DNA of 64,000 nt from a virus, in the IMG/VR virus record IMGVR_UViG_3300025646_000029, positions 1-64,000 of that record, one strand, 5' to 3'. Made by a program: the position numbers and the translations under genes. Under the pieces are notes generated by a model, which ran no database searches, was not told where the DNA came from, and saw nothing but the letters and a program-made list of their open reading frames with translations. Positions 1-56,733 of the stretch are shown here, one piece after another. Numbering within the stretch: position 1 is the first letter of the stretch; every line of letters begins with the position of its first letter.

Positions 1-135
1 AGGTCGGGGGCCAGGTCTGGAATCAGGTCGGGTATCAGGTCTTGTATCAGGTCGGGATTCAGGTCTTTGATCAGGTTTGGTATCAGGTCTGGAATCAGGT
101 CGGGAATCGGGTCATGGATCAGGTATTGGAGGAAA
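1..135. repeat. tandem array of about 11 copies of a 12-bp unit AGGTC-N-GG-N-ATC
   Basis: Direct reading: aggtctggaatc, aggtcgggtatc, aggtcttgtatc, aggtcgggattc, aggtctttgatc and so on. The period is 12 bp with about 3 variable positions per unit. The array runs off the left edge of the window. Confidence 0.9.
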
Positions 136-176
136 TTCGTGAAAACAGCCGAGCAGGTGTGGGATCAGGTCAATGA
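1..176 (+). CDS. 5'-truncated ORF (frame 3) encoding a tetrapeptide-repeat (Q-V-x-x)n protein
   Basis: Frame 3 is open from the window edge to TGA at 174-176, which overlaps the ATG at 173 (ATGA). Translation: VGGQVWNQVGYQVLYQVGIQVFDQVWYQVWNQVGNRVMDQVLEEIRENSRAGVGSGQ. Frame 1 is also open across the repeat, so coding status is uncertain. Confidence 0.25.
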   Translation, partial: VGGQVWNQVGYQVLYQVGIQVFDQVWYQVWNQVGNRVMDQVLEEIRENSRAGVGSGQ

Positions 177-574
177 GAGAGATTAAATTTAGATTTTGGC
201 ATAATGGATTAAGGCAATTCTTACCGGATTACATGTTTGGTATTACTGGCAACTGGATACTTACTTGTGAACCCCGCTTTAAGTTATGGGATGGTCCTCA
301 GTGGGATTTGGCTTCACCTAACACAACGTTAGATATTACCATTCAGCAGTACACGGGACTTAAAGATAAGAATGGAGTGAAGATTTACGAAGGCGATATC
401 TTACGGTGGAACGGTCCTAGTGATATTTATCGAACCGGAGTGGTAAAATATAACCCACCAAGATTTGAAGCCTTAACTGACAGCATTCCAAATATGAATG
501 GTTTACCAGTATATAACATTCTTCACAATAAATCAATGGTTGTTGGAAATATCTTTGAAGGAGTTAATAAATGA
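173..574 (+). CDS. YopX-like phage protein, paralog 1
   Basis: N-terminal MREIKFRFW, central QQYTGLKDKNGVKIYEGDI and C-terminal VVGNIFEGVNK, a pattern shared by five ORFs in this window and typical of the YopX family. Stop and start overlap the flanking genes. Confidence 0.6.
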   Translation: MREIKFRFWHNGLRQFLPDYMFGITGNWILTCEPRFKLWDGPQWDLASPNTTLDITIQQYTGLKDKNGVKIYEGDILRWNGPSDIYRTGVVKYNPPRFEALTDSIPNMNGLPVYNILHNKSMVVGNIFEGVNK

Positions 575-936
575 CTGATAAGTCAGATAAAAAACAGAAG
601 CATCTGGTTCGTTTCGAAGACATGCTGACCGACTCACAAAGAGCGGCGTGGGTAATGACAATTGAAGACGATGAAATATGGATGACGCTTGAAGAAATTA
701 TGGATGCTCATAAGAAATATTGTGAAGATCAAGATATGGGAGATGTTCCTCCAACACGGGGTGAGCTACTTAGAGACATTGGAGACTTTATTAGATTTCA
801 TTACGTGGAAGTTCTAGTAGAATGCAAAACTTGTGATGGTACAGGAGAAGTTCATTCTCATAATCCACAGTGTTGGACATGTTCTGGAAGAGGGTATACA
901 ATTGTGTGGAGAAACAGTTGTCGTAAATCTTCTTGA
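571..936 (+). CDS. small protein with DnaJ-type CxxCxGxG zinc-finger repeats
   Basis: CKTCDGTG and CWTCSGRG motifs. The N-terminal half is paralogous to the 1015..1260 ORF (WMTLEEIM(D/E)AH(K/H)KYCEDQD(M/I)GDVPPT). Confidence 0.45.
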   Translation: MTDKSDKKQKHLVRFEDMLTDSQRAAWVMTIEDDEIWMTLEEIMDAHKKYCEDQDMGDVPPTRGELLRDIGDFIRFHYVEVLVECKTCDGTGEVHSHNPQCWTCSGRGYTIVWRNSCRKSS

Positions 937-1014
937 AAAGAATTATAAATTAGCCAAGAAGATAAAGAAACTACTTTCTGAAAATACAGATTTAATCTTT
1001 AGCAAGGAAAAGAT

Positions 1015-1260
1015 ATGAAATTTCGCCGCATTAGAATAGATCCACAACCCGGACAAAATTACCCGCATCCAGAAGGAACTGCGTGTATTGGTATACACGC
1101 CTTGGAGTCAGATAGATGGATGACACTCGAAGAAATTATGGAAGCTCACCATAAGTATTGTGAAGATCAAGATATAGGAGATGTTCCGCCGACATGGGGT
1201 GAGCTAATTAGAGATCTGGGGTTGTTTATTTGTTTTCATATGGTAGAAGTGAATGAGTAA
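1015..1260 (+). CDS. paralog of the N-terminal domain of the 571..936 protein, lacking the Zn finger
   Basis: About 45 aa align near-identically to 571..936. ATGA overlap at both ends. Confidence 0.4.
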   Translation: MKFRRIRIDPQPGQNYPHPEGTACIGIHALESDRWMTLEEIMEAHHKYCEDQDIGDVPPTWGELIRDLGLFICFHMVEVNE

Positions 1261-1465
1261 AAGAAAACTACACAACAATAAACCAAAGTCTTCCCACAGC
1301 AAATCTCGCAACCAAAGTGAATCTCACAGAAAAGGCTCATGTCTCAGGAAGATTGGATACGATAAAAGGGAAGCATACGAACACAAAAAAATTATGGGAG
1401 ATACTGATCTATCTATTTACAAGTGTAAGTTTTGTGGTAAATTCCATATTGGACATAGGAGTTGA
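1253..1465 (+). CDS. small basic Zn-ribbon protein
   Basis: Lys/Arg/His-rich N-terminus and a C-terminal CKFCGKFH motif. Translationally coupled. Confidence 0.3.
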   Translation: MSKRKLHNNKPKSSHSKSRNQSESHRKGSCLRKIGYDKREAYEHKKIMGDTDLSIYKCKFCGKFHIGHRS

Positions 1466-1947
1466 CAATGAGTGATAAATCAGAAGATCATCCATACGCA
1501 AAGTATCTAAAGTTAAAAGAGCCGGTAGAATTTAAACTTTCTATTTTAGATGATAAAGAACAAAAGTTTTGGGACCATATGGAGAAAAAGAATGACCGAA
1601 ATAGAGAAGGTTGGTACGGGTTTGCAACTTTTGGATATGCTGATCCAGATAAAGAAAATAGAATCAAGAAAAAACTACAAGATTCATTAGACTCATTGAA
1701 ATGGAATACTTGGAATAGATGGAGCGATCCAGACTTAAACGATGTCTACAGTAACGGAATGACTGGAGAAGTTGCGTCTTTTCATGACTGCATTTATGAA
1801 GCACTTAATAAGTCATACGAAATTGAGCAACTGCGGGACATCTTCTTTTCTTTACCAGAACATCTTATTCTAGTAGCAAGAGAATGGGGCTTGTCAGACA
1901 CAGAATTTAGAGAGGCGGTATATTCACACTTATGTCAGAATTCATAA
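1462..1947 (+). CDS. hypothetical protein
   Basis: 161-aa ORF with coupled start and stop. No recognisable motif. Confidence 0.4.
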   Translation: MTMSDKSEDHPYAKYLKLKEPVEFKLSILDDKEQKFWDHMEKKNDRNREGWYGFATFGYADPDKENRIKKKLQDSLDSLKWNTWNRWSDPDLNDVYSNGMTGEVASFHDCIYEALNKSYEIEQLRDIFFSLPEHLILVAREWGLSDTEFREAVYSHLCQNS

Positions 1948-2330
1948 TCGACACTGGTAAAACCAGAACAGAACCAATTGATTACAGTTGGAGAAATAAA
2001 CCCGGAGGTGGATGCCTCGGAGCTATTGACTGCAAAGAATGTGGATGTATTATGGCTGCTCAAGGCAGTCATTGTTTTTGTATGGGGATTTATACCTGTC
2101 CAAGATGTGGTTATGAATCTAAAGGATGGGTGCATAATATTCGTGGATTTAAGAATGGTAGTCCAATTTATGATGACCCCGTTGATATTGATTCGGAAAC
2201 CTTTGAAAAAATCAAAACTGGATTTAAAGCTGTTGACTTTGCCCCAACAGGTGTTATGATAGACCACGATTCTTATGCTATAGCCGATATTATGGTAAAA
2301 TTTTATTTAGGGTTGACAAATGAGTTCTGA
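1932..2330 (+). CDS. Cys-rich hypothetical protein
   Basis: CLGAIDCKECGC...CFCMGIYTCPRCGY. The C-terminal 20 aa (DSYAIADIMVKFYLGLTNEF) are identical to the C-terminus of the 7346..7543 ORF. Confidence 0.4.
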   Translation: MSEFIIDTGKTRTEPIDYSWRNKPGGGCLGAIDCKECGCIMAAQGSHCFCMGIYTCPRCGYESKGWVHNIRGFKNGSPIYDDPVDIDSETFEKIKTGFKAVDFAPTGVMIDHDSYAIADIMVKFYLGLTNEF

Positions 2331-2643
2331 CGAACATAAGCAACGATACATTAACCGCATAAAAGAAGTAGTTAATCCTATGATCTACAAGGAAGTAGAT
2401 GGATATGATGTCATACAATTTAAAGGTGCTGGATTTTTTAGTGCTGAATCATTACGTGTAATTGCCGATTATCTTGATGAAAGAAATAAACCGTGGGACC
2501 ATGTTATCAATGAGGGGATATGTCACCAATGCGGAAGAGCAAAAGAAATGTCAAGAGAAATAACAGAAAATGGAGATCCGATATTTTATGACTGCCACTA
2601 TTGTACTACTATTAATATGATAGACCGCCAAGCGTATCACTAG
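2320..2643 (+). CDS. hypothetical Zn-binding protein
   Basis: CHQCGRAKEM...YDCHYCTT. The start lies inside the conserved junction motif. Confidence 0.4.
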   Translation: MSSDEHKQRYINRIKEVVNPMIYKEVDGYDVIQFKGAGFFSAESLRVIADYLDERNKPWDHVINEGICHQCGRAKEMSREITENGDPIFYDCHYCTTINMIDRQAYH

Positions 2644-2742
2644 CTCAATTAAAAGAGCTATCTCAAGAAGATAGAGCTAAAGTATTCCGGCACTTTTGTC
2701 GAGGATGTAATCGTTACCTTGAAGAAGGAGAGGTTTGCTATT

Positions 2743-3210
2743 GTGAGAAATATTAAATTTCGTGTATGGTCTAAACTTCATAAGAAATGGTATAATAATA
2801 CTATTTTAATAGCCTATGATGGTCTGCCATTTGCTCACTTTGTTAAAGTTGATGATGATGGAAAAGCTGTAGAACATCAGGTATTTAATGCGGAGAATTT
2901 AGACCTTGTAGTTCAACAATCAACGGGACTCACCGATCAGAATGGTCAGGAAATTTACGAGGGGGATATTCTCTCTTTTCCAAAAGACAGTATGGAAGAC
3001 TACATCGTACATGCTGTTGTAAAATATGGCACTGGAGAATTTGATGGTGGAGTTTACAAATATACCGGATTTTATCTTGAAAGCACAGGAGATGATGTTA
3101 ATCTAAAAGAGGGCGACATCATGGAACCCTATGAGATAACAAACCTGCATGATCCAAAGTGGTATCACTACGAAGTAGTGGGAAATATCTTTGAAGGAGT
3201 TGATAAATGA
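2743..3210 (+). CDS. YopX-like phage protein, paralog 2
   Basis: The GTG at 2743 gives M/V-RNIKFRVW like the other paralogs, preceded by the RBS gaaggagagg. QQSTGLTDQNGQEIYEGDI and VVGNIFEGVDK motifs. The track start at 2719 is probably too far upstream. Confidence 0.55.
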   Translation: MRNIKFRVWSKLHKKWYNNTILIAYDGLPFAHFVKVDDDGKAVEHQVFNAENLDLVVQQSTGLTDQNGQEIYEGDILSFPKDSMEDYIVHAVVKYGTGEFDGGVYKYTGFYLESTGDDVNLKEGDIMEPYEITNLHDPKWYHYEVVGNIFEGVDK

Positions 3211-3422
3211 CTAATTACATTGTAATGTGGGAAAGAGATGGTAATGAAGGTTTTGACTTTGTAAACGCAGAAGATGAAGACTCTGCTATTGAGCTATGGC
3301 TCGAACATCAAAATGGTCATCATCCAGATGGTCGTTTATACAAGATGATTATTACCGAAACTAACAATACCTACAAAGTTCCACTGGATTCCTATGGATA
3401 TTATTATGGAGTTGAGAAATGA
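3207..3422 (+). CDS. hypothetical protein
   Basis: 71-aa ORF with ATGA coupling at both ends. Confidence 0.35.
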   Translation: MTNYIVMWERDGNEGFDFVNAEDEDSAIELWLEHQNGHHPDGRLYKMIITETNNTYKVPLDSYGYYYGVEK

Positions 3423-3598
3423 GTTCTGACGAACTAAAAATACAAACCCGATATCAATTTGGATTTCCTTATCATAGAATAGTGTATGGAGATATGGTTG
3501 TCGTAAATCTTCTTGAAAAGAATTATAGATTAGCCAAGACAATAAAGAAGCTACTTTCTGAAAATCCAGATCTAATCTTTAATAAAGAAAAGATATGA
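3419..3598 (+). CDS. small conserved peptide (59 aa), below the ORF-track cutoff
   Basis: MSSDELKIQTRYQFGFPYHRIVYGDMVVVNLLEKNYRLAKTIKKLLSENPDLIFNKEKI. The C-terminal 34 aa are encoded by a ~110-bp repeat also present at 908..1018, with synonymous differences. Confidence 0.3.
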   Translation: MSSDELKIQTRYQFGFPYHRIVYGDMVVVNLLEKNYRLAKTIKKLLSENPDLIFNKEKI

Positions 3599-3771
3599 CT
3601 CACCAAATTACCTGTATCTATTGCCATGACACTATTTTTGTCAATCAAGATAGAGTTCGTAATAATCTATCTCTGAATTTATGGAAGTTTGTCGATTGGG
3701 GCTCTGGCGTTTGTCCAAAGTGTTCTAAAACACTAAAAGAACAAGAAATCACTCAAAGGGTTGACAAATGA
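3595..3771 (+). CDS. small Zn-ribbon protein (58 aa), below the ORF-track cutoff
   Basis: MTHQITCIYCHDTIFVNQ...GSGVCPKCSKTL. Its start overlaps the previous stop (ATGA). It ends ...QRVDK with its stop overlapping the ATG at 3768. Confidence 0.3.
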   Translation: MTHQITCIYCHDTIFVNQDRVRNNLSLNLWKFVDWGSGVCPKCSKTLKEQEITQRVDK

Positions 3772-4106
3772 GCCGTGAGATTAAGTTTCGTTTTTGGGAC
3801 ACACAAGACAAGAAATTTGCTAAGAATCTAGCTATCCTTAATAATGGGACCATTTTAGAAATAGATGTAACGCCATTTTCCCCCAATCAAGATAAGTATA
3901 TTTCTCAACAATACACAGGACTTAAAGATAAGAATGGTGTGGAGATTTATGAGGGCGACATTGTAGAATTTTGCATACCAAAAAATGAACCAGAAACTGA
4001 AACAGTGACTTTTGAAGACGCGGTTTTTTGGGCCGGTTATCCGCTGTATGAAGTCGCCAGTAGTTGTAAAGTAGTTGGAAATGTATTTGAAGGAGTTGAC
4101 AAATGA
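3768..4106 (+). CDS. YopX-like phage protein, paralog 3
   Basis: MSREIKFRFW, QQYTGLKDKNGVEIYEGDI and VVGNVFEGVDK. Confidence 0.6.
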   Translation: MSREIKFRFWDTQDKKFAKNLAILNNGTILEIDVTPFSPNQDKYISQQYTGLKDKNGVEIYEGDIVEFCIPKNEPETETVTFEDAVFWAGYPLYEVASSCKVVGNVFEGVDK

Positions 4107-4387
4107 AATGCCCGGCATGTGGGTACACCCACGAAACCAAAACAGAAATGGTTGGCGATGTTATTCGTTACAAATCTGGAAAAAGAAAAGGCGAGATCAA
4201 AGAAGTTAAAACAAAAACAATAACTTTAGAGATCGGTCATGAGCCATTTGAAGCAGTAACAATTTCTCATTGTCGGGTCGTACACCACAGGGAAGCCGAA
4301 TACGGTTTCTGCGGGGACAAAGATCGTGAGGAAATATCATTTAATGCCTGCCCCGAATGCGGTTGTATGTTTATTGATAGGGGTTGA
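4103..4387 (+). CDS. Zn-ribbon protein
   Basis: MKCPACGY...CPECGC motifs. Confidence 0.4.
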   Translation: MKCPACGYTHETKTEMVGDVIRYKSGKRKGEIKEVKTKTITLEIGHEPFEAVTISHCRVVHHREAEYGFCGDKDREEISFNACPECGCMFIDRG

Positions 4388-4390
4388 CAA

Positions 4391-4657
4391 ATGACCAAAG
4401 AAAATGGCGGCATAGATGGTTATATTGATACTAGGGAGTATACTATGCTTTGGATTAAAGACGCAATAAAATGGAAAGAGCTACCGCTTGTCGAGAAATT
4501 GGAAGCCTTACGCCTTCACTATTGCACCGGTCCATGCGGTCAGTCTAGCAGTATTTTAGCTACTCGGTCTGCGACCGACTCCGCCCTTAAAGAAGCAATG
4601 AAGACAATTGATTCGTTAAGTCGATTGAGCGGAAGTAGAGAAGATTACACCACGTGA
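4391..4657 (+). CDS. hypothetical protein
   Basis: 88-aa ORF preceded by the junction motif ggggttgacaaATGa. Confidence 0.35.
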   Translation: MTKENGGIDGYIDTREYTMLWIKDAIKWKELPLVEKLEALRLHYCTGPCGQSSSILATRSATDSALKEAMKTIDSLSRLSGSREDYTT

Positions 4658-4692
4658 ACTGCTGGTGCTTGAAGAAAGATAGGCATGTTACT

Positions 4693-5136
4693 ATGAGAAG
4701 TATTAAGTTTAGAATTTGGCACAAACCAACAAATCAATTCGTAAGATGTCATCCTGTATGGGATGATGAAAAGTATACAGACCTTGGGCTTTTATCACTT
4801 ACTTCCGATGGTGAATTAATATTTGAAACTAAGTATGATGGATTCCAAAGGTTAAGTAGTAATGAGGTTGACGATTTTATCGTCCAGCAATACACCGGAC
4901 TCAAAGATAAGAATGAAGTGGAGGTTTATGAGGGAGATATCGCAGACTGGTGCGAAGATTCATACATAGACGAGGGTACTCAACCAGCTACAATAGTTTG
5001 GCACGAACTAGAAGGCTGGAAATGTACTTGGTATACAGAAGACAGGTCTGAATTATGTACAGAACCACTGTATTTTTATGAAAATCATCGCTACTTTGAG
5101 GTAATCGGAAATATCTTTGAAGGAGTTAAGAAATGA
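4693..5136 (+). CDS. YopX-like phage protein, paralog 4
   Basis: The ATG at 4693 gives MRSIKFRIW. VQQYTGLKDKNEVEVYEGDI and VIGNIFEGVKK motifs. Confidence 0.55.
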   Translation: MRSIKFRIWHKPTNQFVRCHPVWDDEKYTDLGLLSLTSDGELIFETKYDGFQRLSSNEVDDFIVQQYTGLKDKNEVEVYEGDIADWCEDSYIDEGTQPATIVWHELEGWKCTWYTEDRSELCTEPLYFYENHRYFEVIGNIFEGVKK

Positions 5137-5789
5137 TTGTAGTAGCTGGAACCACATATAGAACCGGGACGACGTTAATTCAAAGACTGATCAATACTTC
5201 ATCAGAAGAACGTGTAATATATGGTGAAGACAACGCGATTCTACAGTGCGTTTCTAATTATTTAAGCTTTACCCGCAATTCATTAAAGCGATCAAATGCA
5301 CAAACAGAAATCTTCAAGAAAGATAAAAATTCTTTTACAGCAAATATGCTACCATTGAATAAAGTGCCTTACGCTTGTGCAAATTTTATCAACAGTTTGT
5401 ATTTCAATTCTGGGTTTAAAGTTTTGTCACCAACAATCGAGCAAATCAAAACACTAGCGGCTATCTCTGACGCGAAGATAGTTTTAATGTATAGAAACGT
5501 ACAAGAAAGTTGGAGATCCTACCAAAGTATGTATAATTGGGTAGATAAAAAAACATTCTTTGGTTATTTTGAGAGATCTAGAGAATTGTTAAAATCTTCC
5601 CTAAATGGTGAGCTAGACTACGTTTATACAATAAAGTATGAAGATATAGCCCGAGATACAATTGAAAGATTATTCGATTGGTTAGAAATATCCAATAGAG
5701 ATAATATCGCAGAGGTATTAAATCTTAAACTAAAGGAAATGGACGGTTTTAGCAATAGTAGTGATTCTTATTTAGAGGTTGACAAATGA
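5133..5789 (+). CDS. sulfotransferase-like protein
   Basis: N-terminal AGTTYRTGTTL resembles the PAPS 5'-phosphosulfate-binding loop (PKSGTTW-like). LMYRNVQESWRSY resembles the 3'-phosphate-binding RNPxD..S.Y motif. The size fits a sulfotransferase domain. Confidence 0.4.
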   Translation: MIVVAGTTYRTGTTLIQRLINTSSEERVIYGEDNAILQCVSNYLSFTRNSLKRSNAQTEIFKKDKNSFTANMLPLNKVPYACANFINSLYFNSGFKVLSPTIEQIKTLAAISDAKIVLMYRNVQESWRSYQSMYNWVDKKTFFGYFERSRELLKSSLNGELDYVYTIKYEDIARDTIERLFDWLEISNRDNIAEVLNLKLKEMDGFSNSSDSYLEVDK

Positions 5790-5817
5790 AGCTATCCAAG
5801 TCGATGAAGGAAGTGAA

Positions 5818-5949
5818 ATGAGTGATTTACCATCGGGATATAACTTCAAAATACAGGTGCCGGGAAAACACAAACCACACAAAGAATATAACGACCCGCA
5901 CAACAGATTGTCGCAATTGTGTGTACTTGGCTTTAGGAATAATAAATGA
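5818..5949 (+). CDS. tiny ORF (43 aa) in an ATGA-coupled chain
   Basis: MSDLPSGYNFKIQVPGKHKPHKEYNDPHNRLSQLCVLGFRNNK. Its stop overlaps the ATG at 5946. An 11-aa ORF at 5786..5821 links it to the upstream gene. Confidence 0.2.
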   Translation: MSDLPSGYNFKIQVPGKHKPHKEYNDPHNRLSQLCVLGFRNNK

Positions 5950-6491
5950 GAGGGATTAAGTTTACGGATAAAATAATTGTAATTGATGTTGAATCCACAT
6001 GCGATGAAAACAAAGAGGGATTTATAAGTGAAATAATTGAGATAGGAATGACAGACTCAAACGGAAAAGAAATTCCTTCTATTTTTGTAAAACCAAAATA
6101 TTCTATAGTTACGCCATTTTGTACCAGATTAACAACTTTGACTCCTGAAGAAATTGAAGCAAAAGGTCAAGAGCCAGAAATTGCATATAAAAATCTCGAA
6201 TCTATATTTTCAAAATATACTAGGTGGGCATCTTATGGATATTACGACAAAAAAATGTTTGAAAAAATGAGTAGTCTATACGGGCTAGATATAAGGCTGC
6301 CACCGATACATATAAATGTTAGATTACTTTTTGCTCAAGAAATATTAAATAGTAATGATCCTCAAAAAGCACCAAGAAATCCCAAGGACGCACTAATTAT
6401 GCTGGGTAAAGAATTTCAAGGGGTAAATCACAGAGGGGAAGATGACGCTATAAACATAGCAAATCTTTATAATTTGTTAATTCAATTCTAG
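5946..6491 (+). CDS. DnaQ-like 3'-5' exonuclease (DEDDh family)
   Basis: Exo I motif VIDVEST and exo III motif HRGEDDAINIANLY (H-x4-D). 181 aa. Confidence 0.65.
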   Translation: MRGIKFTDKIIVIDVESTCDENKEGFISEIIEIGMTDSNGKEIPSIFVKPKYSIVTPFCTRLTTLTPEEIEAKGQEPEIAYKNLESIFSKYTRWASYGYYDKKMFEKMSSLYGLDIRLPPIHINVRLLFAQEILNSNDPQKAPRNPKDALIMLGKEFQGVNHRGEDDAINIANLYNLLIQF

Positions 6492-6504
6492 GAGTTATGG
6501 GTAA

Positions 6505-6936
6505 ATGAGAGCGATTAAGTTTCGGGCATGGAATAAAAGAGAGAAAGGATGGGAGCAAGAACATTCCTGTTATGGGATTGGGCTAGACGGAACAATTATT
6601 CCTGCGACGCCTTGTGTAACTCCCATTCGTCCTTTTAATAAGGACAGCGTAATTATCCAGCAGTATACTGGACTTAAAGACAAGAAAGGTCGAGAGATTT
6701 ATGAGGGCGATTTAATTATATCAGATCATTGGGCTTCGCAAGAACCATTAGTAGTTAGCTGGGATAAAGACGCCTGTAAATTTTACGCTTCACTTTCAAC
6801 TGGTGGAGAATACATTGATATGGACGAGGCTAGTAAACTGGTGGTCGGTAATATTTTTGAAGGAGTTGATAAATTAGTGATGAAATCACATACGGCGAAA
6901 TCTGCTGGTACGGTCAGGGTTTTTGGGGGTAAATAA
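6505..6936 (+). CDS. YopX-like phage protein, paralog 5 with a C-terminal extension
   Basis: MRAIKFRAW, IQQYTGLKDKKGREIYEGDL and VVGNIFEGVDK, followed by 20 extra residues. RBS aggag upstream. Confidence 0.55.
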   Translation: MRAIKFRAWNKREKGWEQEHSCYGIGLDGTIIPATPCVTPIRPFNKDSVIIQQYTGLKDKKGREIYEGDLIISDHWASQEPLVVSWDKDACKFYASLSTGGEYIDMDEASKLVVGNIFEGVDKLVMKSHTAKSAGTVRVFGGK

Positions 6937-6939
6937 CCA

Positions 6940-7161
6940 ATGCTTTACTTCATGAAGTTGATTGCAGCGAATGGTATAATTGGCTTCATTCACGTATTTT
7001 CGATTTACCTGGAGTCACAAATACCACGGGAGCGTCTTGATTTGGTGTTGATTGTCACGTTTTTTCATTTGTCGGCCACTTTCTGGCTTATGGACAGAAG
7101 CCTTAAAAAGAACTGGTTCAATCTCTTTCCCGGCAGAAAAGGTAGGGGTCTTTTCTGGTGA
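6940..7161 (+). CDS. small hydrophobic protein, possibly membrane
   Basis: Two hydrophobic stretches, IAANGIIGFIHVFSIY and LVLIVTFFHLSATFWL. Confidence 0.25.
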   Translation: MLYFMKLIAANGIIGFIHVFSIYLESQIPRERLDLVLIVTFFHLSATFWLMDRSLKKNWFNLFPGRKGRGLFW

Positions 7162-7272
7162 GGTAAATAAATATGAAAACAGATAATCAGACGACGAAAC
7201 TCTTTCGATCAATTGGCTGTGCCTTTTGCGTAGCCTTTTTATTGTTGTCGTGCTGGTTTTGGCGGGTGTGCA

Positions 7273-7300
7273 TTGAAATGGAGTACTTCTTACGTATAAT
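7273..7300 (+). promoter_or_regulatory. sigma70/sigmaA-like promoter candidate (TTGAAA-16-TATAAT)
   Basis: ttgaaa at 7273-7278, a 16-bp spacer, and a perfect tataat at 7295-7300. It lies about 45 bp upstream of the ORF at 7346, in the only sizeable gap of the left arm. Confidence 0.35.
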
Positions 7301-7345
7301 ACATGTGCTAAAATATTTTACAGAATACTAAACAGGACTTGACAA

Positions 7346-7543
7346 ATGAGTTTACAAGATCAAGCAGAAAATTTAGAAGCAATTAAATTAATGTGTTCCA
7401 AATACAAAGAAGAACTAAAAGAAAAGGCTCTTAAAATGGTTTGGGAGCAAGATCAAGAAGAAGGGCAGGGGTGGTCTGACGATTCTTATGCTATAGCCGA
7501 TATTATGGTAAAATTTTATTTAGGGTTGACAAATGAGTTCTAA
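7346..7543 (+). CDS. hypothetical protein sharing a C-terminal tail with 1932..2330
   Basis: Ends DSYAIADIMVKFYLGLTNEF. 63 bp are identical to 2266..2328. Confidence 0.35.
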   Translation: MSLQDQAENLEAIKLMCSKYKEELKEKALKMVWEQDQEEGQGWSDDSYAIADIMVKFYLGLTNEF

Positions 7544-8081
7544 AACGAGATTCACATCAATAACGACATCAAGCAATGCATACACAACCAAAATAGTTGA
7601 CAGCTTATTTGACGACATTAGAACAAAAACCAACTGGCGCACAAAAATTCTACGTAGAACCATAAATTTTTACAGAGACCTTCGGTATTTTTTTATGAAA
7701 ATTTGTCAACGGTTTCAATATGGATTTCCGCTCGAACAGGTGTGGGAGTTCCATTGTTGGCATTCTGAAATTGTTGTGCCGCGACTTAAACTGCTAAAGA
7801 AAATTCGATCGAAACACCCAACTGATTTAACAAACGAAGAATGGGGGGATATTCTAGACAAAATGATTTGGTCATTTGAAAACCACGATGATGTCATAGA
7901 GCCAACCTACAGCGAAGATTACGACCACCGTTATGAAGTAGCCAGCTATGAAAAATTTACTTCGTATACCACTCTAAATAAAACTGGGACAATTGATTGG
8001 TCTCCAGTCAGAAAACATGAAACAAAAGTTCAAGAAGGACTTGATTTGTTTGCCAAATATTATTTGAATCTTTGGGATTAA
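7533..8081 (+). CDS. hypothetical protein
   Basis: 182-aa ORF starting in the junction motif. Contains copy 1 of the 29-bp direct repeat. Confidence 0.45.
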   Translation: MSSKTRFTSITTSSNAYTTKIVDSLFDDIRTKTNWRTKILRRTINFYRDLRYFFMKICQRFQYGFPLEQVWEFHCWHSEIVVPRLKLLKKIRSKHPTDLTNEEWGDILDKMIWSFENHDDVIEPTYSEDYDHRYEVASYEKFTSYTTLNKTGTIDWSPVRKHETKVQEGLDLFAKYYLNLWD

Positions 8082-8107
8082 AACTTGACTTTTATTAAGA
8101 GCGGCAA

Positions 8108-8317
8108 ATGAGTAAATTACAGGATCTTCTTTTTAGGGCGAGTATCTATGGCGCTGAAGTTAAATACGACAATGGTACTTTTATCATTGTATGCCAAAAT
8201 GGTGCATTTTTAACCAGTAAAGACCTGTATACTCTACTTGAAGAAAGCGGCGTCAAAGTTGATACAATATATGCTAGAGATAATAGCTTGATTGTAAATA
8301 TTTCAATGAAAGATTGA
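8108..8317 (+). CDS. hypothetical protein
   Basis: 69-aa ORF. Confidence 0.3.
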   Translation: MSKLQDLLFRASIYGAEVKYDNGTFIIVCQNGAFLTSKDLYTLLEESGVKVDTIYARDNSLIVNISMKD

Positions 8318-8320
8318 TAA

Positions 8321-8650
8321 ATGAAAAAAATTGAAAATATCATACAAGCTTTTCGGGTTCTTAGTGCTTTAAAAGTAAAAGAAGTGGTATTACCGCATCT
8401 TGAATACCGCGAACTAAAACACTTGGTAGATCGTCATTTTTTAAATAACATCTCACATAATTCTCAAGAAAAATTTGAGGAATCTACAACAGTGCTAATT
8501 TATGGAGTTCAGGTTAAATCAGAACGGTTCCCTAAATACGAAAAGATTGACTACATAACCCCAGATAAATTCGCTGTTCAGCTCAAAAAAATGACAGAAG
8601 TAAAGATTAAATCGCGACCTCATACGCCGCGAGACGAACTGGATGACTAA
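8321..8650 (+). CDS. hypothetical protein
   Basis: 109-aa ORF. Confidence 0.35.
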   Translation: MKKIENIIQAFRVLSALKVKEVVLPHLEYRELKHLVDRHFLNNISHNSQEKFEESTTVLIYGVQVKSERFPKYEKIDYITPDKFAVQLKKMTEVKIKSRPHTPRDELDD

Positions 8651-8773
8651 ATGGATGTTATAAATTAACAGCCGCCGCTACCCTGGCAGCAGCTGACATC
8701 AAGCAATACATGCACAACCAAAAAGGAGCACGAAATAAATAGATTTAGATATGACGATGTTGATTGGGGCTAC

Positions 8774-33058: not shown

Positions 33059-34915
33059 ATGATAAACCTACATGTACACTCGAAACACAGCTGGGACTGC
33101 ATATCATCAATAAAAGGCATAGTTCAAGCTGCGGTTGAATACGGACAAGACGCCATAGCTGTTACTGACCACGGCTTGATGAGTGGCGCGATGGAATTGT
33201 TTTTAGAAGCCCGAAAGGCTGGAATAAAGCCCATAATAGGGTGCGAGTTTTACGTCTGCCCACCGGGTATAAAAAAAGAAGATAAAAACAGTGAGTCCAG
33301 AAGACTGAATCATCTAGTTGTTTTGGCAAAAAATCTTGTTGGATATAAAAACCTTATAAAGCTGAACTATATAGCGCACGAAAATTTTTACTACCGCCCA
33401 AGAATAGACGAACAAGCTTTGTTCGAAAACTCGGAAGGACTAATAGTAATAAACGGCCACTTCGATACCAGTGTTCACGACTGTCTATTTTTTAACAGAG
33501 AGATGGCTTCAGCTGCTACAACCGAAGAAGAGTGCTGGCTTTATATACACCCTGAGTGCGAAGATAATGTTCTTAAAATAGTTTCGAGATATCAGGAATT
33601 TTTTGGCGAAGATTTCTATTTAGAGTGCCAAATGTTCGACCAGAAAGACCCGATACAGCAAGTGGCGTCGAAAAAGCTTTTAGAAATATCTAGAAAATAC
33701 AAAATAAACGCGGTCGGTACAGGGGATGCTCATTACATAAAACAAGAAGATGCGATTTTTCATAAAACGTTTTGCGCAATAAAACAAAATAAGAGAGTAA
33801 AAGACCTACCCAGCATAAGCTACTATACAAACGGGTCTTATTCTATAGTTTCAAACGAGCACGCAGCAAAAACCTATTCACCAGAACTGATTGACGCGAC
33901 TCACGAAATAGCGGCAAAAATAGAAGACTTCGACATAACTATTCCAATGGCCATACCTTCTTTTAGTTCAGAAGGGGCGTACAAACCAAAAGAAATTGTG
34001 CGCGACAAATGTATAGAGAAACTAAAGAAACTAGGCCTTCACAACGAAGAGTATATCAAAAGATTAGATTACGAAATAAATGTATTAGAACTTGGTAATC
34101 TGTACGACTACTTTCTTGTGGTAGAAGATTATTGCGAATTCGCACGCAAACAATCAATGCTGATTGGCCCCGGAAGAGGGTCTTCTGGTGGATGCCTGAT
34201 TTCTTATCTGCTCGATATAGTTTCAATAAACCCGATTGAGTATAACCTCAGCTTTGATAGATTCTTTTCTGCAGAAAAAGCTAGGTCGGGATCTATACCA
34301 GACATTGATACTGATTTTCAGTCGTCCAGAAGAGACGAAATCATAAGTTATATACAAAAAAAATACGGAAAAAGAAAAGTTTGCGAGGTTGTTACTTACG
34401 GGAAACTTCAAGCTAAAAATGCCCTCAAAGACGTACTCAGGGCTCACGCTGCTTGTACACCAATGGTAGCAAATATAATAACTAAAAACATACCAGACAA
34501 AGACAAAATATCTGACAAACTCCAAGATTTCTTTGAAGAAACCGGTTCTTCAAGCGTGCTTTATTATTGTTTGAAAAAAGAACCAAAACTTTTGTCCGAT
34601 TATTGCCGTCTTTCAACAAAAGAAGACGGGACGGAAATTTTTGAAGGAGATTACGCCGAATCTTTCATGGTAGCGGTAGGACTAGAGGGCGCTATCAAAT
34701 CATCTTCGAGGCACCCGTCTGCTTTGATCATATCTCCTTATAATATAGACGAAATATGCCCGATGTTATTAGATAAAAAAACAAACCAAATGATAACGGC
34801 CTACGACATGTATTATTTTCCCTATGCGTCTCTAGTGAAATTTGATATTCTTGTTTTAAAATCTCTTGACTGCCTTGCGGAAGTTAATACTTTGTTAAAG
34901 GAAACGGGGTTATGA
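33059..34915 (+). CDS. dnaE: DNA polymerase III alpha (DnaE-type) N-terminal fragment: PHP, palm and thumb
   Basis: PHP motif INLHVHSKHS...AVTDHGLMSGAMELF and HLVVLAKNLVGYKNL. Catalytic PDIDTDF. Ends at the FDILVLKSL (KFDFLGL-equivalent) motif. Confidence 0.8.
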   Translation: MINLHVHSKHSWDCISSIKGIVQAAVEYGQDAIAVTDHGLMSGAMELFLEARKAGIKPIIGCEFYVCPPGIKKEDKNSESRRLNHLVVLAKNLVGYKNLIKLNYIAHENFYYRPRIDEQALFENSEGLIVINGHFDTSVHDCLFFNREMASAATTEEECWLYIHPECEDNVLKIVSRYQEFFGEDFYLECQMFDQKDPIQQVASKKLLEISRKYKINAVGTGDAHYIKQEDAIFHKTFCAIKQNKRVKDLPSISYYTNGSYSIVSNEHAAKTYSPELIDATHEIAAKIEDFDITIPMAIPSFSSEGAYKPKEIVRDKCIEKLKKLGLHNEEYIKRLDYEINVLELGNLYDYFLVVEDYCEFARKQSMLIGPGRGSSGGCLISYLLDIVSINPIEYNLSFDRFFSAEKARSGSIPDIDTDFQSSRRDEIISYIQKKYGKRKVCEVVTYGKLQAKNALKDVLRAHAACTPMVANIITKNIPDKDKISDKLQDFFEETGSSSVLYYCLKKEPKLLSDYCRLSTKEDGTEIFEGDYAESFMVAVGLEGAIKSSSRHPSALIISPYNIDEICPMLLDKKTNQMITAYDMYYFPYASLVKFDILVLKSLDCLAEVNTLLKETGL

Positions 34916-35620: not shown

Positions 35621-36065
35621 AACTCAAAACTGCACCAGGTGCAATCTAAGAGAAAAGTGCCTGTCTCCAGTTGGAATCGAGGCGTATGGCCGAGACCCGT
35701 TTGTTCTTTTTATTTTTGGAAGCAAAGTAAGCAAAGAATCCGACGGTTTTCAAACAGTTTTGGACGTCACCAGCTTTAATATACTTGAAAATATACAAAA
35801 AGAGCTTCAAGTTGGAATAGCAGTAACTTACGAAACAAAGTGCTATTCGACTAAATCTTACTCGGCTTCTCAAAAAACAAAATGCTCTGGGTATTTCATA
35901 CAAAAGGAAATACAGGCCGTCTCTGCGAAATTAGTTGTTGGTTTCGGAGTAAAAGAAAACAACTTGTTTTCTTGCGACATATATTGCGATACTTACGCAA
36001 AAGTTTTTAATAATGCCAAAAAAACTAAAGATTTGATTAAAAAAATAAAAGAAAGGCTTACTTGA
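35586..36065 (+). CDS. uracil-DNA glycosylase family-4-like protein
   Basis: CTRCNLREKCLSPVGIEAYGRDPFVLFIFGSKVSKESDGFQ matches family-4 UDG motif A, but the GEAPG catalytic loop is replaced by GSKVS. Confidence 0.45.
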   Translation: MGMLTLGQIRNETQNCTRCNLREKCLSPVGIEAYGRDPFVLFIFGSKVSKESDGFQTVLDVTSFNILENIQKELQVGIAVTYETKCYSTKSYSASQKTKCSGYFIQKEIQAVSAKLVVGFGVKENNLFSCDIYCDTYAKVFNNAKKTKDLIKKIKERLT

Positions 36066-36898
36066 TGGTGTGTCAAAACAAAATATGTGTTCTAGATTTC
36101 GAAACTGATAGCTTAGACAACAATTTCAATCAACCCGTTTCTATTGCAGCTGTCATGATAGACGGCAGATCTTTAAAAATATGCGAGAACGGGATTTTTT
36201 ATTCTTTAATATCAAGAATTCCAGATTCCGAAGTAGAAAAGTATGGTCTCTCAAAATTAGACCCAAAGTCAATGTCGATCAACGGCATACGTGAAAGCGA
36301 CCTAGAATCTGCTCCCCCTTTAAAATTAGTGTGGACCAACTTTATAAATTGGGTAAAATATTTTAACCCAAAACCCAGCAAATGGGACGGCCCAATATTA
36401 TCTGGTCATAACCATAAATACGACCGAAAAATAATCGAGAGAATTATGTATGGTACGCATTATGGCCTGAAAATATCCAATCAAAAATCAATTCAATACG
36501 CCCGGTTTTCAAAAATGACAACCGAGGAGCAAAAGGACTACTTTGCTCGAACTGCTACTTTGCAAGAACCATGGAAACTAGGTCCACAATCTGAATTTTT
36601 TCACCCGGGGCTGTATTTAGATTCGCAGGATTACAGCCATATTTTATTTGAAAACACGAGAAACTATAGAAGCATTTCTTTGTCCAACGTGAAGTCGCTG
36701 TTGGGTTTCAAAGACGACGCCGAAATAGATGAACACCATGCTCTAGTCGACACGATGTGGTCCGCTGAGATAATAGTCAGATACATCTCACTTATGAGAC
36801 AGGTTTTAAAAGATGTTGACTTTGAAACTCAAAATAAAACACACTTAGATGTGCACCAACAGCTTAAAAATATACTACAAAACGAAAAGGAAGACTGA
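36062..36898 (+). CDS. DnaQ-like 3'-5' exonuclease (candidate proofreading subunit)
   Basis: Exo I CVLDFETDS and exo III HHALVDTMWSAEI. Confidence 0.6.
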   Translation: MMVCQNKICVLDFETDSLDNNFNQPVSIAAVMIDGRSLKICENGIFYSLISRIPDSEVEKYGLSKLDPKSMSINGIRESDLESAPPLKLVWTNFINWVKYFNPKPSKWDGPILSGHNHKYDRKIIERIMYGTHYGLKISNQKSIQYARFSKMTTEEQKDYFARTATLQEPWKLGPQSEFFHPGLYLDSQDYSHILFENTRNYRSISLSNVKSLLGFKDDAEIDEHHALVDTMWSAEIIVRYISLMRQVLKDVDFETQNKTHLDVHQQLKNILQNEKED

Positions 36899-38502
36899 TG
36901 GTGACAAAAGCTGCTAGCGATAGCAATTTTTATTCATTTGATTGCGGGTGTTCTATACCAATTGACGAAGATGGAGACCCGCAAATAGATTATGAAAATA
37001 TCAACCTATGCTGCAATAAAACATGGAGTACGTACGCAAAGGGGTACACGCGCTCGATTTTTCAGTTAGAAAAAAGACTTGGGAAAGAATGGAGTAAAAA
37101 ACTAAAACCGAAGTCTGTACTAGAATCAGCCGCTTTGATATCCGTCATAAGGCCTGGCACGCTAAATGCAGTTAATGCCGAAGGTAAAAGCTTTTCTCAA
37201 GTTTTTTGCGATAGAAAGAACTCTAACTGGAAGCCAGAAGAGGGCGATAAATTATCGGAAGCGCTAGAGGAAACCTATGGCGTCAATATTTACCAAGAAC
37301 AAACGATGTTTCTTTCTTTTTTGTTTGCTGGATTCGATGGCGACCAGCAAATAAAGCTATTAAAAGGAATAGCGAAGAAAGACGCTGGTTATCTTGCGTC
37401 TTTAAAAGAAGAATTCTTGAATGGTTGTAGTTCAAAAGGGTTGATTACAAACAAACAGGCTCTGGAGGTGTTTTCAAACATAGAGGCAAGCGCCAGATAC
37501 GCCTTTAACAAATCTCACGCAGTTGGGTATGCTAAAACTGGATATTGGACAGCTTGGGTAAAATCACATCTGCCGATTCATTATATATGCGGATGGTTAA
37601 GGCACGCAAAAAATACACCAAAACCAAAAGAAGAAATAAAGGCGATAGTCTCGGAAGCAAATAGATTAGGAGTCACAATTGCACCCCCGAGCTTTAAAAA
37701 CCTACCGGTCACCAATTTCTTTATAAACAAAGAAACAAGCATTATTTATTTTGGAATAGATTCAATCAAAGAGTGCGGTGAAAAAGTGGCCAGCTTGATC
37801 CAAAAAAATATCACAAAACCTCCAACGAGTTTTTTAAATTTTCTAGTTTTTGATTCACAAAACCTTAAAAAAAATAATATAATAAACTTTATACGGGCAG
37901 GGTGTTTCGACTATCTTCAAATCGACAGATATCAGGCTGAGCATGACTACAATAAGTATTCTATGCTCACAAAAGGAGAAAAGAAAGACTGCGTATTGAT
38001 TCAGTCTAAGCTCAATTTAACTAATCTAAAAGACCTATTAAAAAAGGTTTTGGAGCTTAGCGGTAAAGAAGAAAGAATTAAAATTATAAAGTCAATGATC
38101 GAGACTTTTGAAGACAACTTAAAAGATAGCAAAAGAGCTATCATAGAGCAAGAGCGCGAGCTGATAGGTGTGAATATAAGTTACTCTTCTATAATGACAA
38201 ATTCTCAATATTCAGCAACGCATGAATGCGGCGTTATAGACGACTTACCGCCAAATACAAAATGTATCGCGTGTGGAGAAGTCGACGAATATTTTGAAAT
38301 CGAAATAAAAAACGGCAAGATGGCTGGACAAACCATGGCGCGTTTTAAATTAGTTGATGAATCCGGAGAATGCGACTGTGTAGTATTCCCAAAAGAACTA
38401 GACACTTATCAAGGGGCAATATATGAAACTAGCAATGTGATGATCGTTGGATCTACAGGAAATCGTGGTGGACTAATAGTAAATAAAATTTATGAAGGTT
38501 GA
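36898..38502 (+). CDS. dnaE: DNA polymerase III alpha (DnaE-type) C-terminal fragment: fingers, beta-binding and OB fold
   Basis: IPIDED...GYTRSIFQLE (the IPLDD...T.AVFQLES-equivalent), VIRPGT, NIYQEQTMF, RYAFNKSHAVGYAKTGYWTAWVKSHLPIHY and C-terminal OB-like ARFKLVDESGECDCVVFPKE. It starts exactly where the N-fragment stops. Confidence 0.8.
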   Translation: MVTKAASDSNFYSFDCGCSIPIDEDGDPQIDYENINLCCNKTWSTYAKGYTRSIFQLEKRLGKEWSKKLKPKSVLESAALISVIRPGTLNAVNAEGKSFSQVFCDRKNSNWKPEEGDKLSEALEETYGVNIYQEQTMFLSFLFAGFDGDQQIKLLKGIAKKDAGYLASLKEEFLNGCSSKGLITNKQALEVFSNIEASARYAFNKSHAVGYAKTGYWTAWVKSHLPIHYICGWLRHAKNTPKPKEEIKAIVSEANRLGVTIAPPSFKNLPVTNFFINKETSIIYFGIDSIKECGEKVASLIQKNITKPPTSFLNFLVFDSQNLKKNNIINFIRAGCFDYLQIDRYQAEHDYNKYSMLTKGEKKDCVLIQSKLNLTNLKDLLKKVLELSGKEERIKIIKSMIETFEDNLKDSKRAIIEQERELIGVNISYSSIMTNSQYSATHECGVIDDLPPNTKCIACGEVDEYFEIEIKNGKMAGQTMARFKLVDESGECDCVVFPKELDTYQGAIYETSNVMIVGSTGNRGGLIVNKIYEG

Positions 38503-47418: not shown

Positions 47419-47615
47419 GCAATTTTATATTTCAGGTAACACCCACATGAATTACACTTGTTGTTTTCTTGGTCCAGAAAATCGCAACCCGAACAAGCTT
47501 CTGACCGCGATTGTATTGTTTGCTGGTCTGCTGGCTTCAATCCATTGCTGACGTGTTTCAAAACAGACATCGCAAGGCTTACTAATTTTTTTGCGTTCAT
47601 TTGTTGCACCCACAC
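47382..47615 (-). CDS. Cys-rich small protein, member 2 of the same family
   Basis: CSGCDFLDQENNKCNSCGCYLKYKIAWDSESCPEGKW. Confidence 0.45.
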   Translation of the reverse strand: MWVQQMNAKKLVSLAMSVLKHVSNGLKPADQQTIQSRSEACSGCDFLDQENNKCNSCGCYLKYKIAWDSESCPEGKW

Positions 47616-48280
47616 CCCTTTTGAGTTTCTTTTGATTGTACTAAAGAAAAAGTTTTTGTTGTTGATTCGACTTGTTGTTTGGTTATTTCATCCCACAATG
47701 GTTGCTCTAGTGGGCACTTCTCTTTTTTGATAAAAGTTTTTTTTAAAAGATCACAACCACACGCTTGACATGATTTTGTTTCTTTGTCAAAAAAATCGCA
47801 AGCAACGCATTTTTTTAGTCTAGACTTTCGCTCGTTTTGGTCTACAAAACTACTAATAGCTTTTACGTGCTCAGGAATATGTTTTGTGTAAACTTCTGGT
47901 ATACCGTACACATTCAAAGACCCGTTCAAAATATTTTTGCAGCAATCTACTACGGACTCATAGTTTTCGACACGTATTAAATCCGGTTTGTCTATTTTGT
48001 ATGCAACTGCATAAGTGCTCATTCCAAGCAAATTTGAATCATTTTCTTTGGAAAATATTCTTAAAATAGGCACGGCAAAATTTTGTTTTAGTTCCCAACT
48101 GTATATTGTAAAATCTACCAACAAAAAATCAACGCCCGCATGGTCGTTAAAAAAATCTTTTTTTGATTCAACTTTTTTCAAAATCATATCTGAACCGGTT
48201 CCTCGATTGTGGTCACAGCTAGATACCCGTAAAGTTTTCTTAGTTTGCACTTTATATCTTCTTTGGGTTGTATTCGTCAC
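47597..48280 (-). CDS. 227-aa protein with a C-terminal Cys module of the same family
   Basis: CVACDFFDKETKSCQACGCDLLKKTFIKKEKCPLEQPLW, plus a unique ~150-aa N-terminal domain. Confidence 0.5.
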   Translation of the reverse strand: MTNTTQRRYKVQTKKTLRVSSCDHNRGTGSDMILKKVESKKDFFNDHAGVDFLLVDFTIYSWELKQNFAVPILRIFSKENDSNLLGMSTYAVAYKIDKPDLIRVENYESVVDCCKNILNGSLNVYGIPEVYTKHIPEHVKAISSFVDQNERKSRLKKCVACDFFDKETKSCQACGCDLLKKTFIKKEKCPLEQPLWDEITKQQVESTTKTFSLVQSKETQKGCGCNK

Positions 48281-51314: not shown

Positions 51315-51325
51315 TCATTGTCTCC

Positions 51326-55201: not shown

Positions 55202-55225
55202 ACCTGCCTCTGTTAATAAAACTTA

Positions 55226-56713: not shown

Positions 56714-56733
56714 TTTGGTTTCCTAGTACCGGC

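Follow-up and report, generated by a model that had tools for sequence, protein, structure and literature searches.

How phages gain and reshuffle small accessory genes without wrecking their expression is an old question, which goes back to the 'linker sequences' of the modular theory of Susskind and Botstein, and conserved boundary or linker sequences lie at mosaic joints of lambdoid phages (HK97, HK022, HK620). Few concrete sequence elements are known for such reshuffling, these being the promoter-early stem-loops (PeSLs) of T4-type phages and the start-associated sequences (SAS), the function of the latter being open. The PeSLs were described by Arbiol et al. (2010, PMC2839356) and Comeau et al. 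(2014, PMC4122927), and the SAS were found in Cluster K mycobacteriophages (Pope et al. 2011, PMC3203893; 188-genome survey, PMC12699233), as sequences of 13 nt present in 11–19 copies per 60-kb genome and located at a variable distance of 3–7 nt upstream of the start codon. Here we describe a short motif repeated at the gene junctions of the virus record IMGVR_UViG_3300025646_000029 from IMG/VR, of which positions 1 to 64,000 were analysed (hereafter the window).

The motif, with the consensus (A)AGGAGTTGAYAAATGA, is non-random and biologically meaningful, and we consider it on balance probable that it is a portable gene-junction element of ~17 nt, which delimits small accessory cassettes and supports both their coupled translation and their shuffling. 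The array that carries these cassettes is hyperplastic and probably early.

The junction motif in the window and in related loci

The 12-mer GTTGACAAATGA is present in six exact copies in the 64-kb window (2312, 3760, 4095, 4383, 5778 and 7525, on the + strand only), against 0.01 expected from shuffled sequences. The 15-mer GGRGTTGAYAAATGA gave 12 sites with up to 2 mismatches (560, 2309, 3196, 3408, 3757, 4092, 4380, 5122, 5775, 6862, 7335 and 7522), against 0.59 expected, the largest number in any shuffle being 3. The window total is 12–14 copies, every one on the + strand and within the first 8.3 kb, with no copy on the − strand or in the remaining 56 kb. All copies fall inside an array of accessory genes that contains five YopX paralogs, a sulfotransferase-like gene, an RNase T-type exonuclease and several zinc-ribbon proteins. 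The array and the copies are as follows (ORF, open reading frame):

173..8650, + strand: accessory-gene array of ~25 small, tightly packed genes (from the ORF map, Pfam matches and motif positions)
560..574, + strand: motif variant GGAGTTAATAAATGA; closes the YopX gene 173–574 (EGVNK*) and opens the gene at 571
1458..1471, + strand: one-A-deleted motif GGAGTTGACAATGA; its internal TGA closes the upstream gene (GHRS*), ATG at 1468
2309..2323, + strand: motif AGGGTTGACAAATGA; the upstream ORF reads through (LGLTNEF*), opens the gene at 2320, inside the 63-nt repeat 2266–2328
3196..3210, + strand: motif GGAGTTGATAAATGA; closes the YopX gene 2719–3210 and opens the cassette 3207–3422
3408..3422, + strand: motif variant GGAGTTGAGAAATGA; closes the cassette 3207–3422 (GVEK*) and opens the gene at 3419
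3757..3771, + strand: motif AGGGTTGACAAATGA; closes the gene 3595–3771 (RVDK*) and opens the YopX gene at 3768
4092..4106, + strand: motif GGAGTTGACAAATGA; closes the YopX gene 3768–4106 and opens the gene at 4103
4380..4394, + strand: motif GGGGTTGACAAATGA; its internal TGA closes the upstream gene (IDRG*), ATG at 4391
5122..5136, + strand: motif variant GGAGTTAAGAAATGA; closes the YopX gene 4654–5136 (EGVKK*) and opens the sulfotransferase-like gene at 5133
5775..5789, + strand: motif GAGGTTGACAAATGA; closes the gene 5133–5789 (LEVDK*); its ATG opens an ORF of 11 codons only, followed by a degenerate GGAAGTGAAATGA start at 5818
6862..6876, + strand: decayed motif GGAGTTGATAAATTA, with ATGA changed to ATTA, at the end of the YopX domain of 6505–6936, the ORF continuing for 20 codons
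7335..7349, + strand: motif GGACTTGACAAATGA; intergenic, opens the gene 7346–7543
7522..7536, + strand: motif AGGGTTGACAAATGA; the upstream ORF reads through (LGLTNEF*), opens the gene at 7533, inside the 63-nt repeat 7479–7541
8310..8324, + strand: weak motif copy AAGATTGATAAATGA; its internal TGA closes the upstream gene, opens the gene at 8321

An earlier note on this DNA had reported the reuse of the motif at gene boundaries and had proposed a count against shuffled sequences. The reuse is real, and the count puts the motif far above chance in the window, with a stronger enrichment than had been stated; the positions given in the note were correct to ~10 nt, its '1456' copy being the one-A-deleted variant. 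The note had also let a motif variant close each YopX gene, which holds for four of the five paralogs (EGVNK*, EGVDK*, EGVDK* and EGVKK*) and fails in the fifth, where ATGA has become ATTA.

Relatives of the locus were found by pattern scans of IMG/VR and of metagenome contigs, giving a clade of 135 loci (560 kb; named here by L-numbers) in which all 515 copies of GTTGAYAAATGA lie on one and the same strand, with the highest density, 17 copies in 5 kb, in contig L075 (8.9 kb). Motif-bearing relatives have the replication module in the gene order of the window, and the motif is nucleotide-identical in relatives whose replication proteins share 25–40% of their amino acids with those of the window. 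Distant loci (≤41% identity), found via a neighbouring 182-aa protein and serving as negative control, contained neither the motif nor a comparable repeated 11-mer. Bacterial and archaeal genomes totalling 596 Gb yielded 40 single matches in unrelated taxa, which is close to the chance expectation (about 35 by our own estimate), and none was multi-copy; the motif string gave only chance matches in unrelated papers in the searchable literature.

The clade contains 386 unique junction contexts, 125 of which follow the end of a YopX gene and 261 of which have no YopX 3′ end upstream. At the 261 non-YopX junctions the conserved part is ~17 nt, from −5 to +11 (AAGGAGTTGAYAAATGA), with 0.1–0.3 bits on either side. 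These figures bear on the explanation that the motif is a passive relic, in which the end of a YopX gene, together with the start codon after it, was spread by tandem duplication of YopX-containing units and serves no function. The motif indeed encodes the (E)GVDK* tail of YopX paralogs, a YopX end precedes the 125 junctions mentioned, and the frame giving ..GVDK* (frame A) dominates; however, the other 261 junctions are not beside YopX and similarity stops abruptly at the motif edges there, the motif occurs in all three frames and in intergenic positions, and a neutral relic would have decayed over the divergence seen in the replication proteins. Such a relic is largely refuted by the sharp edges, the unrelated neighbours, the use of all frames and the identity across deep divergence, and we consider it very unlikely.

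Among 412 unique array gene starts, 238 have the exact GGAGTTGAYAA and 92 a version with 1–3 mismatches, so that 330 (80%) carry the motif within 3 mismatches, and the other 82 starts are random-like. The mismatches gather in the purine-rich Shine-Dalgarno (SD) part (AGGG, GAGG, GGGG), and TTGAYAA is nearly invariant. Two thirds of the clade copies read TTGATA at the C/T position, and this variant is homogeneous within loci (chi-square 221 versus a simulated mean of 55, a value reached in 0 of 5000 simulations), with a concordance of 0.79 by locus and 0.69–0.73 by cassette family against a baseline of 0.51.

The other version, TTGACA, is the consensus −35 hexamer, and would give each cassette its own sigma-70 promoter, as in the PeSLs of T4. 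Contigs L133 (3242–3270) and L233 (1621–1650) have TTGACAAATGA followed by ..CGTAGACTATAAT, giving perfect sigma-70 promoters (TTGACA, 17 nt, TATAAT), but this form is absent from the window, where the canonical junction copies lack an acceptable −10 box. The earlier note had seen no −10 box either, and this stands for the window, bar a weak match at the one-A-deleted copy 1458–1471 (TTGACA, 18 nt, GATCAT). Promoter-like sites were not enriched (35 versus 31.7 in shuffles), no TTGACA-N17-TATAAT within one mismatch was found in the 64 kb, most clade copies have the TTGATA form, and no terminator hairpin lies beside the copies. With no −10 box after the canonical window copies and no enrichment over shuffles, a promoter for each cassette was rejected as extremely improbable.

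The stop at the motif falls in different frames relative to the upstream ORF, three frames being seen in the window, with EGVDK*, RVDK* and EVDK* ending at the ATGA, IDRG* and GHRS* ending at the TGA inside GTTGA, and LGLTNEF* reading through. Over the 386 clade junctions, the upstream ORF ends at the ATGA in 258 (118 YopX, 140 other), ends at the internal TGA in 39 and reads through in 48, with no long upstream ORF in the remaining 41, which places the conservation at the level of the nucleotides rather than of the protein. The third frame is mostly closed in 2–4 codons by the common downstream starts (MREIK, MSSDE, MTDK). On the downstream side, the motif ATG opens an ORF in nearly all cases (median 77 aa, 11 of 351 under 20 codons), and this, together with the 80% of array gene starts that carry the motif, ties the motif to stop/start junctions. 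All three points, the varying stop frame, the nucleotide-level conservation and the tie to junctions, had been made in the earlier note from the window and were borne out.

The sequence AAGGAGtTGAT is complementary to the 3′ tail of 16S rRNA at 10 of 11 positions, and the predicted duplex has −12.3 kcal/mol for the T variant versus −8.8 for the core alone, a gain of ~3.5. Window genes outside the array have short and varied SDs without the conserved spacer, and the motif is therefore not the general ribosome binding site of the phage. At the level of the mRNA, the motif would provide GGAG as the SD core and, after a spacer fixed at 7 nt, the start codon (ATG) of the gene that follows, together with stops in two frames, these being the TGA inside GTTGA and the TGA of ATGA. 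Because stops in two frames are built into the motif, any upstream gene would end at or next to the following start, where ribosomes could re-initiate, giving translational coupling along a long polycistronic mRNA. From this arrangement we infer a translational role for the motif.

The main rival explanation is that the motif is the operator of a trans-acting phage factor that switches the whole array, acting either as a translational repressor or activator on the mRNA start region (as RegA of T4) or as a DNA silencer (as the oriented 'stoperators' of mycobacteriophage L5), with the recombination boundary as a side effect. Such an operator would fit the near-invariance of TTGAYAA next to an SD part that tolerates substitution, the genome-specific C/T variant, as expected of a co-evolving site and reader, the confinement of the motif to one gene block and one strand, and a ribosome binding site that the rest of the phage does not share; a like argument was made for SAS (PMC3203893). 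On the other hand, the window proteins scanned include none with a RegA-like or repressor domain, although many small ORFs are unannotated, and the motif has neither dyad symmetry nor an accompanying inverted repeat; the exact ATG register and the built-in stops fit a translational unit, and an operator alone does not predict the motif-to-motif duplications and breakpoints described below. We regard an operator as possible, if rather unlikely.

Cassette boundaries and exchange at the motif

When all loci were compared with each other, 45% of the right ends of homology and 41% of the left ends lay no more than 20 nt from a motif; the corresponding shares are 7.7% for random positions and 12–19% for motif-less gene starts. 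The right ends are most frequent exactly at the last A of ATGA, and the left ends at −11 to −17, which is the 5′ edge of the motif. The cassettes between the motifs are shuffled, as in 131 non-redundant loci with 634 gene families the YopX family had neighbours from 70 families upstream and 68 families downstream, and the cassette families of the window occur beside other neighbours in other loci. Cassettes of the window are 89–97% identical at the nucleotide level to those of L212 and L226, and 94–96% identical at the amino acid level to those of L432, L321 and L334, against only 70.6% identity for ThyX between the window and L432; that the cassettes are closer than ThyX and the replication proteins suggests recent exchange.

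Three features of the window bear directly on such exchange:

3193..3423, + strand: an example of a cassette running from one motif to the next, ~95% identical to L334 between unalignable flanks, and present twice in L487
2644..2744, + strand: recombination scar, where L487 has the canonical motif GGAGTTGATAAATGAGAAAT and the window has GCTATTGTGAGAAAT
2266..2328, + strand: 63-nt perfect repeat, identical to 7479–7541, which extends from the 3′ end of an ORF that is otherwise unrelated, through the motif, and 5 nt into the following gene

Contig L487 provides a breakpoint at strain level, as it is 99.88% identical to the window from 2744 onwards and unrelated before, with the switch at the motif ATG. 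It also holds a second copy of the 231-nt cassette 3193–3423, with the motif on both sides. Because the window reads GCTATTGTGAGAAAT where L487 reads GGAGTTGATAAATGAGAAAT, the window YopX gene 2719–3210 lacks an ATG, its possible starts being TTG at 2719 and GTG at 2744, and the ~100 nt in front of it are non-coding; the same gene in L487 starts from the canonical motif ATG. The two read-through LGLTNEF* copies of the window are the single 63-nt perfect repeat, which by sequence comparison is an intragenomic exchange tract centred on the junction. Otherwise unrelated genes have 5′ ends in common, namely ATGAGTTCTGACGAAC, and ATGAGAGNGATTAAGTTT in the YopX genes and the exonuclease gene, which we take to be a trace of intragenomic exchange. 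Longer shared stretches are found at YopX 3′ ends (repeat families D3/D4, 33–41 nt) and at 5′ starts (D11, 21 nt).

The RNase T-type exonuclease gene (5946–6491) was seen to have the same first 21 nt (TAAATGAGAGGGATTAAGTTT, MRGIKF) as YopX genes (MREIKF, MRAIKF), with the shared starts at 5943–5963, 6502–6522 and 170–190, which points to a recombination joint within the opening codons of the gene downstream.

The earlier note had proposed a module-boundary element that could mediate cassette shuffling, and had suggested checking whether related phages exchange different genes between motif copies. The genes between the copies do differ among related phages, and the ends of homology cluster at the edges of the motif, so that the proposal is borne out as a comparative pattern by the changing neighbours, the breakpoints and L487.

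Promoterless small cassettes in one orientation, with highly variable content and each bounded by a conserved site beginning with GTT, could also be read as an integron-like array, in which a site-specific recombinase would cut an attC/attI-type site with the motif as its core. However, the GTTRRRY core is not matched by GTTGAYA, the copies have neither imperfect inverted repeats nor a folded structure around them, no integrase or site-specific recombinase was found among the window proteins scanned (Pfam and PHROGs, covering part of the 85 ORFs), and the 596 Gb of bacterial and archaeal genomes gave no multi-copy occurrence. An attC-like site was rejected because of the missing inverted repeats and of the missing integrase among the scanned proteins, and is scarcely credible. 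A structured RNA was likewise rejected, with no hairpin and no conserved RNA structure at the motif, where the pairing probability is 0.52 versus 0.53–0.55 in the flanks.

If the motif is a portable junction element, as we prefer, the identical 15–17 nt at each junction would provide a short homology, which is longer where YopX 3′ or 5′ ends adjoin. Recombination or template switching between the copies could then delete, duplicate, insert or exchange cassettes, both within a genome and between co-infecting relatives, and by doing so would keep the motif uniform within a genome. Deletions, motif-to-motif duplications, replacements and a homogenised motif are the outcomes expected of exchange between direct copies, and each of them is observed; the window also encodes a UvsX-like recombinase and a PD-(D/E)XK nuclease, which we count in favour of recombination. 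We infer that the motif causes recombination and does not merely mark it.

Several points weigh against this preferred explanation. Recombination at random positions, with selection then keeping only intact genes, would likewise leave breakpoints between genes, and since the motif itself lies there, a causal motif cannot be told from a mere marker. A homology of 17 nt is short for recombination of the RecA/UvsX type, and gene conversion is not separated from linkage, as the C/T variant follows both locus and cassette family. On the translational side, TTGAYAA and not the SD is the most invariant part, which a plain role in SD function and coupling leaves unexplained; the extended 16S pairing may explain part of the spacer conservation, although as an after-the-fact explanation only, and three window copies have a weak SD (AGGG). 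Finally, most clade loci were retrieved with a motif-containing pattern, and copy numbers and the association with YopX are biased upward by this ascertainment; the mismatch spectrum is less affected, as the arrays were defined by other copies.

A more far-reaching proposal, which we think distinctly unlikely, is that the motif is the cis site of a dedicated, integrase-independent cassette system of lytic marine phages, in which a phage factor, with the multi-copy and always nearby YopX proteins as the obvious candidate, recognises TTGAYAAATGA as DNA or RNA and promotes cassette capture or exchange, translation of the array, or both. If true, the arrays would be the phage counterpart of integrons, with a very large pool of accessory genes, possibly including anti-defence genes.

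Other features of the array and the phage

All five YopX paralogs of the array match PF09643 at 54.5–58.8 bits (Pfam gathering cutoff 22.4), and their nearest solved structures, 2OX7 and 2QYZ, are of uncharacterised proteins. A 116-nt segment within 571–1018 (903–1018) is 89% identical to 3483–3598, the 3′ part of the gene 3419–3598, and is out of frame with the upstream ORF 571–936, so that it resembles a frameshifted or chimeric cassette remnant; both segments end at another type of junction (GAAAAGATATGA). The 410 nt at 6940–7345 contain only two doubtful hydrophobic ORFs, together with a terminator-like hairpin and T run (7215–7245) and, just upstream of the motif at 7335, the region's best promoter-like site (TTGAAA, 16 nt, TATAAT; 7273–7300); the hairpin and promoter-like site may split the array into two transcription units. 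Directly after the last array gene, a GC-rich hairpin (CAGCCGCCGCTACCCTGGCAGCAGCTG, 8669–8695) scores as a terminator on the − strand. Searches for RNA structure, Rfam families and tRNAs found none.

Upstream of the array, a 12-nt tandem repeat (CAGGTCNGGNAT, at least 8 units) occupies positions 1–136 of the window and continues upstream, encoding a peptide with a 4-residue 'xQVx' period. Genes of this repeat family occur as tandem paralogs directly upstream of the array, with four in L386 (1–2700) and seven in L427, and they do not have the junction motif.

The replication and nucleotide genes of the window comprise ribonucleotide reductase, ThyX, PhoH, an ATP-dependent DNA ligase, a DnaB helicase and a primase. 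A DnaE-type polymerase is split in two ORFs (33059–34915 and 36898–38502) with four genes in between, one of which encodes a DnaQ/RNase T-like exonuclease (36062–36898), and the same split layout is present in relatives L085, L172 and L204. Very large ORFs on the − strand (1020, 1291, 495 and 2390 aa) are located at 47597–63906, and the switch of coding strand at ~46–47 kb coincides with a change in GC content and skews.

With megablast, neither the array nor 24 kb of core genes matched any GenBank phage, and distant blastn gave matches limited to the conserved YopX core of unrelated phages; the DnaE polymerase is at most 32% identical to that of any isolate. The phage therefore has neither a cultured relative nor a host assignment. 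The contigs with the same motif come from marine metagenomes, including those of TARA.

Comparison with known repeat and cassette systems

Among the elements involved in the reshuffling of phage genes, the motif is a very compact case, with stop, SD and start within ~17 nt, and as a model for plug-and-play cassettes that work through translation it can be put to the test. It is also a simple tag for finding hyperplastic arrays, YopX paralogs and hundreds of ORFan families in marine viromes, and could possibly be used as a ready-made junction for polycistronic constructs.

Judged by its sequence features, the motif is an analogue of SAS and PeSLs and a member of neither. Like the SAS, it is a short asymmetric repeat (15–17 nt) in one orientation only, found at the translation starts, mostly ATG, of a subset of genes and restricted to the non-structural part of the genome (in the window, 1–8.3 of 64 kb). 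Both have an SD core flanked by conserved bases beyond the rRNA pairing, both are common to different gene families and conserved across sub-lineages, and the function of both is unproven. The consensus sequences differ, however, as GGGATAGGAGCCC of the SAS is not within 2 mismatches of AAGGAGTTGAYAAATGA, with only the AGGAG core in common, and the start codon and upstream stop are part of the motif in fixed register and not of the SAS. About half of the SAS copies have 17-bp inverted repeats (ESAS), whereas there are none at the motif, the flanks of which are at background. The motif is also far denser, with the 17 copies in 5 kb and ~80% of array genes given above, occurs in uncultured marine phages and not in temperate actinophages, and has a role at cassette boundaries that was not described for SAS.

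As with the PeSLs, repeated expression signals are located upstream of small ORFans in hyperplastic regions, so that a cassette brings its own signal, breakpoints of insertions, deletions and replacements between close relatives fall in the repeats, and recombination between direct repeats is the proposed mechanism. The PeSLs are transcriptional elements of ~100 bp with a sigma-70 promoter and a terminator hairpin, in contrast to the ~17-nt motif with no −10 box and no hairpin, which would act, if at all, on translation inside a polycistron; mini-circles were shown for PeSLs, whereas exchange at the motif is seen in the comparison of sequences.

The linkers of lambdoid phages resemble the motif as short boundary sequences where homology starts and stops, and which were proposed as sites of homologous exchange; these are few, isolated sequences, unlike each other, and are not known to have a fixed arrangement of SD, start and stop or to repeat as one motif at most junctions of an array. 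Integron cassettes share with the motif array the promoterless small genes in one direction, the variable content and the conserved bounding site, but the array lacks the attC inverted repeats and the GTTRRRY core, and an integrase was not among the scanned proteins; exchange at the motif presumably proceeds by homology rather than by site-specific recombination, unlike in integrons. Start-associated repeats that bound cassettes are an already known kind of element, and it is the form of the motif, which joins stop, SD and start, that is new.

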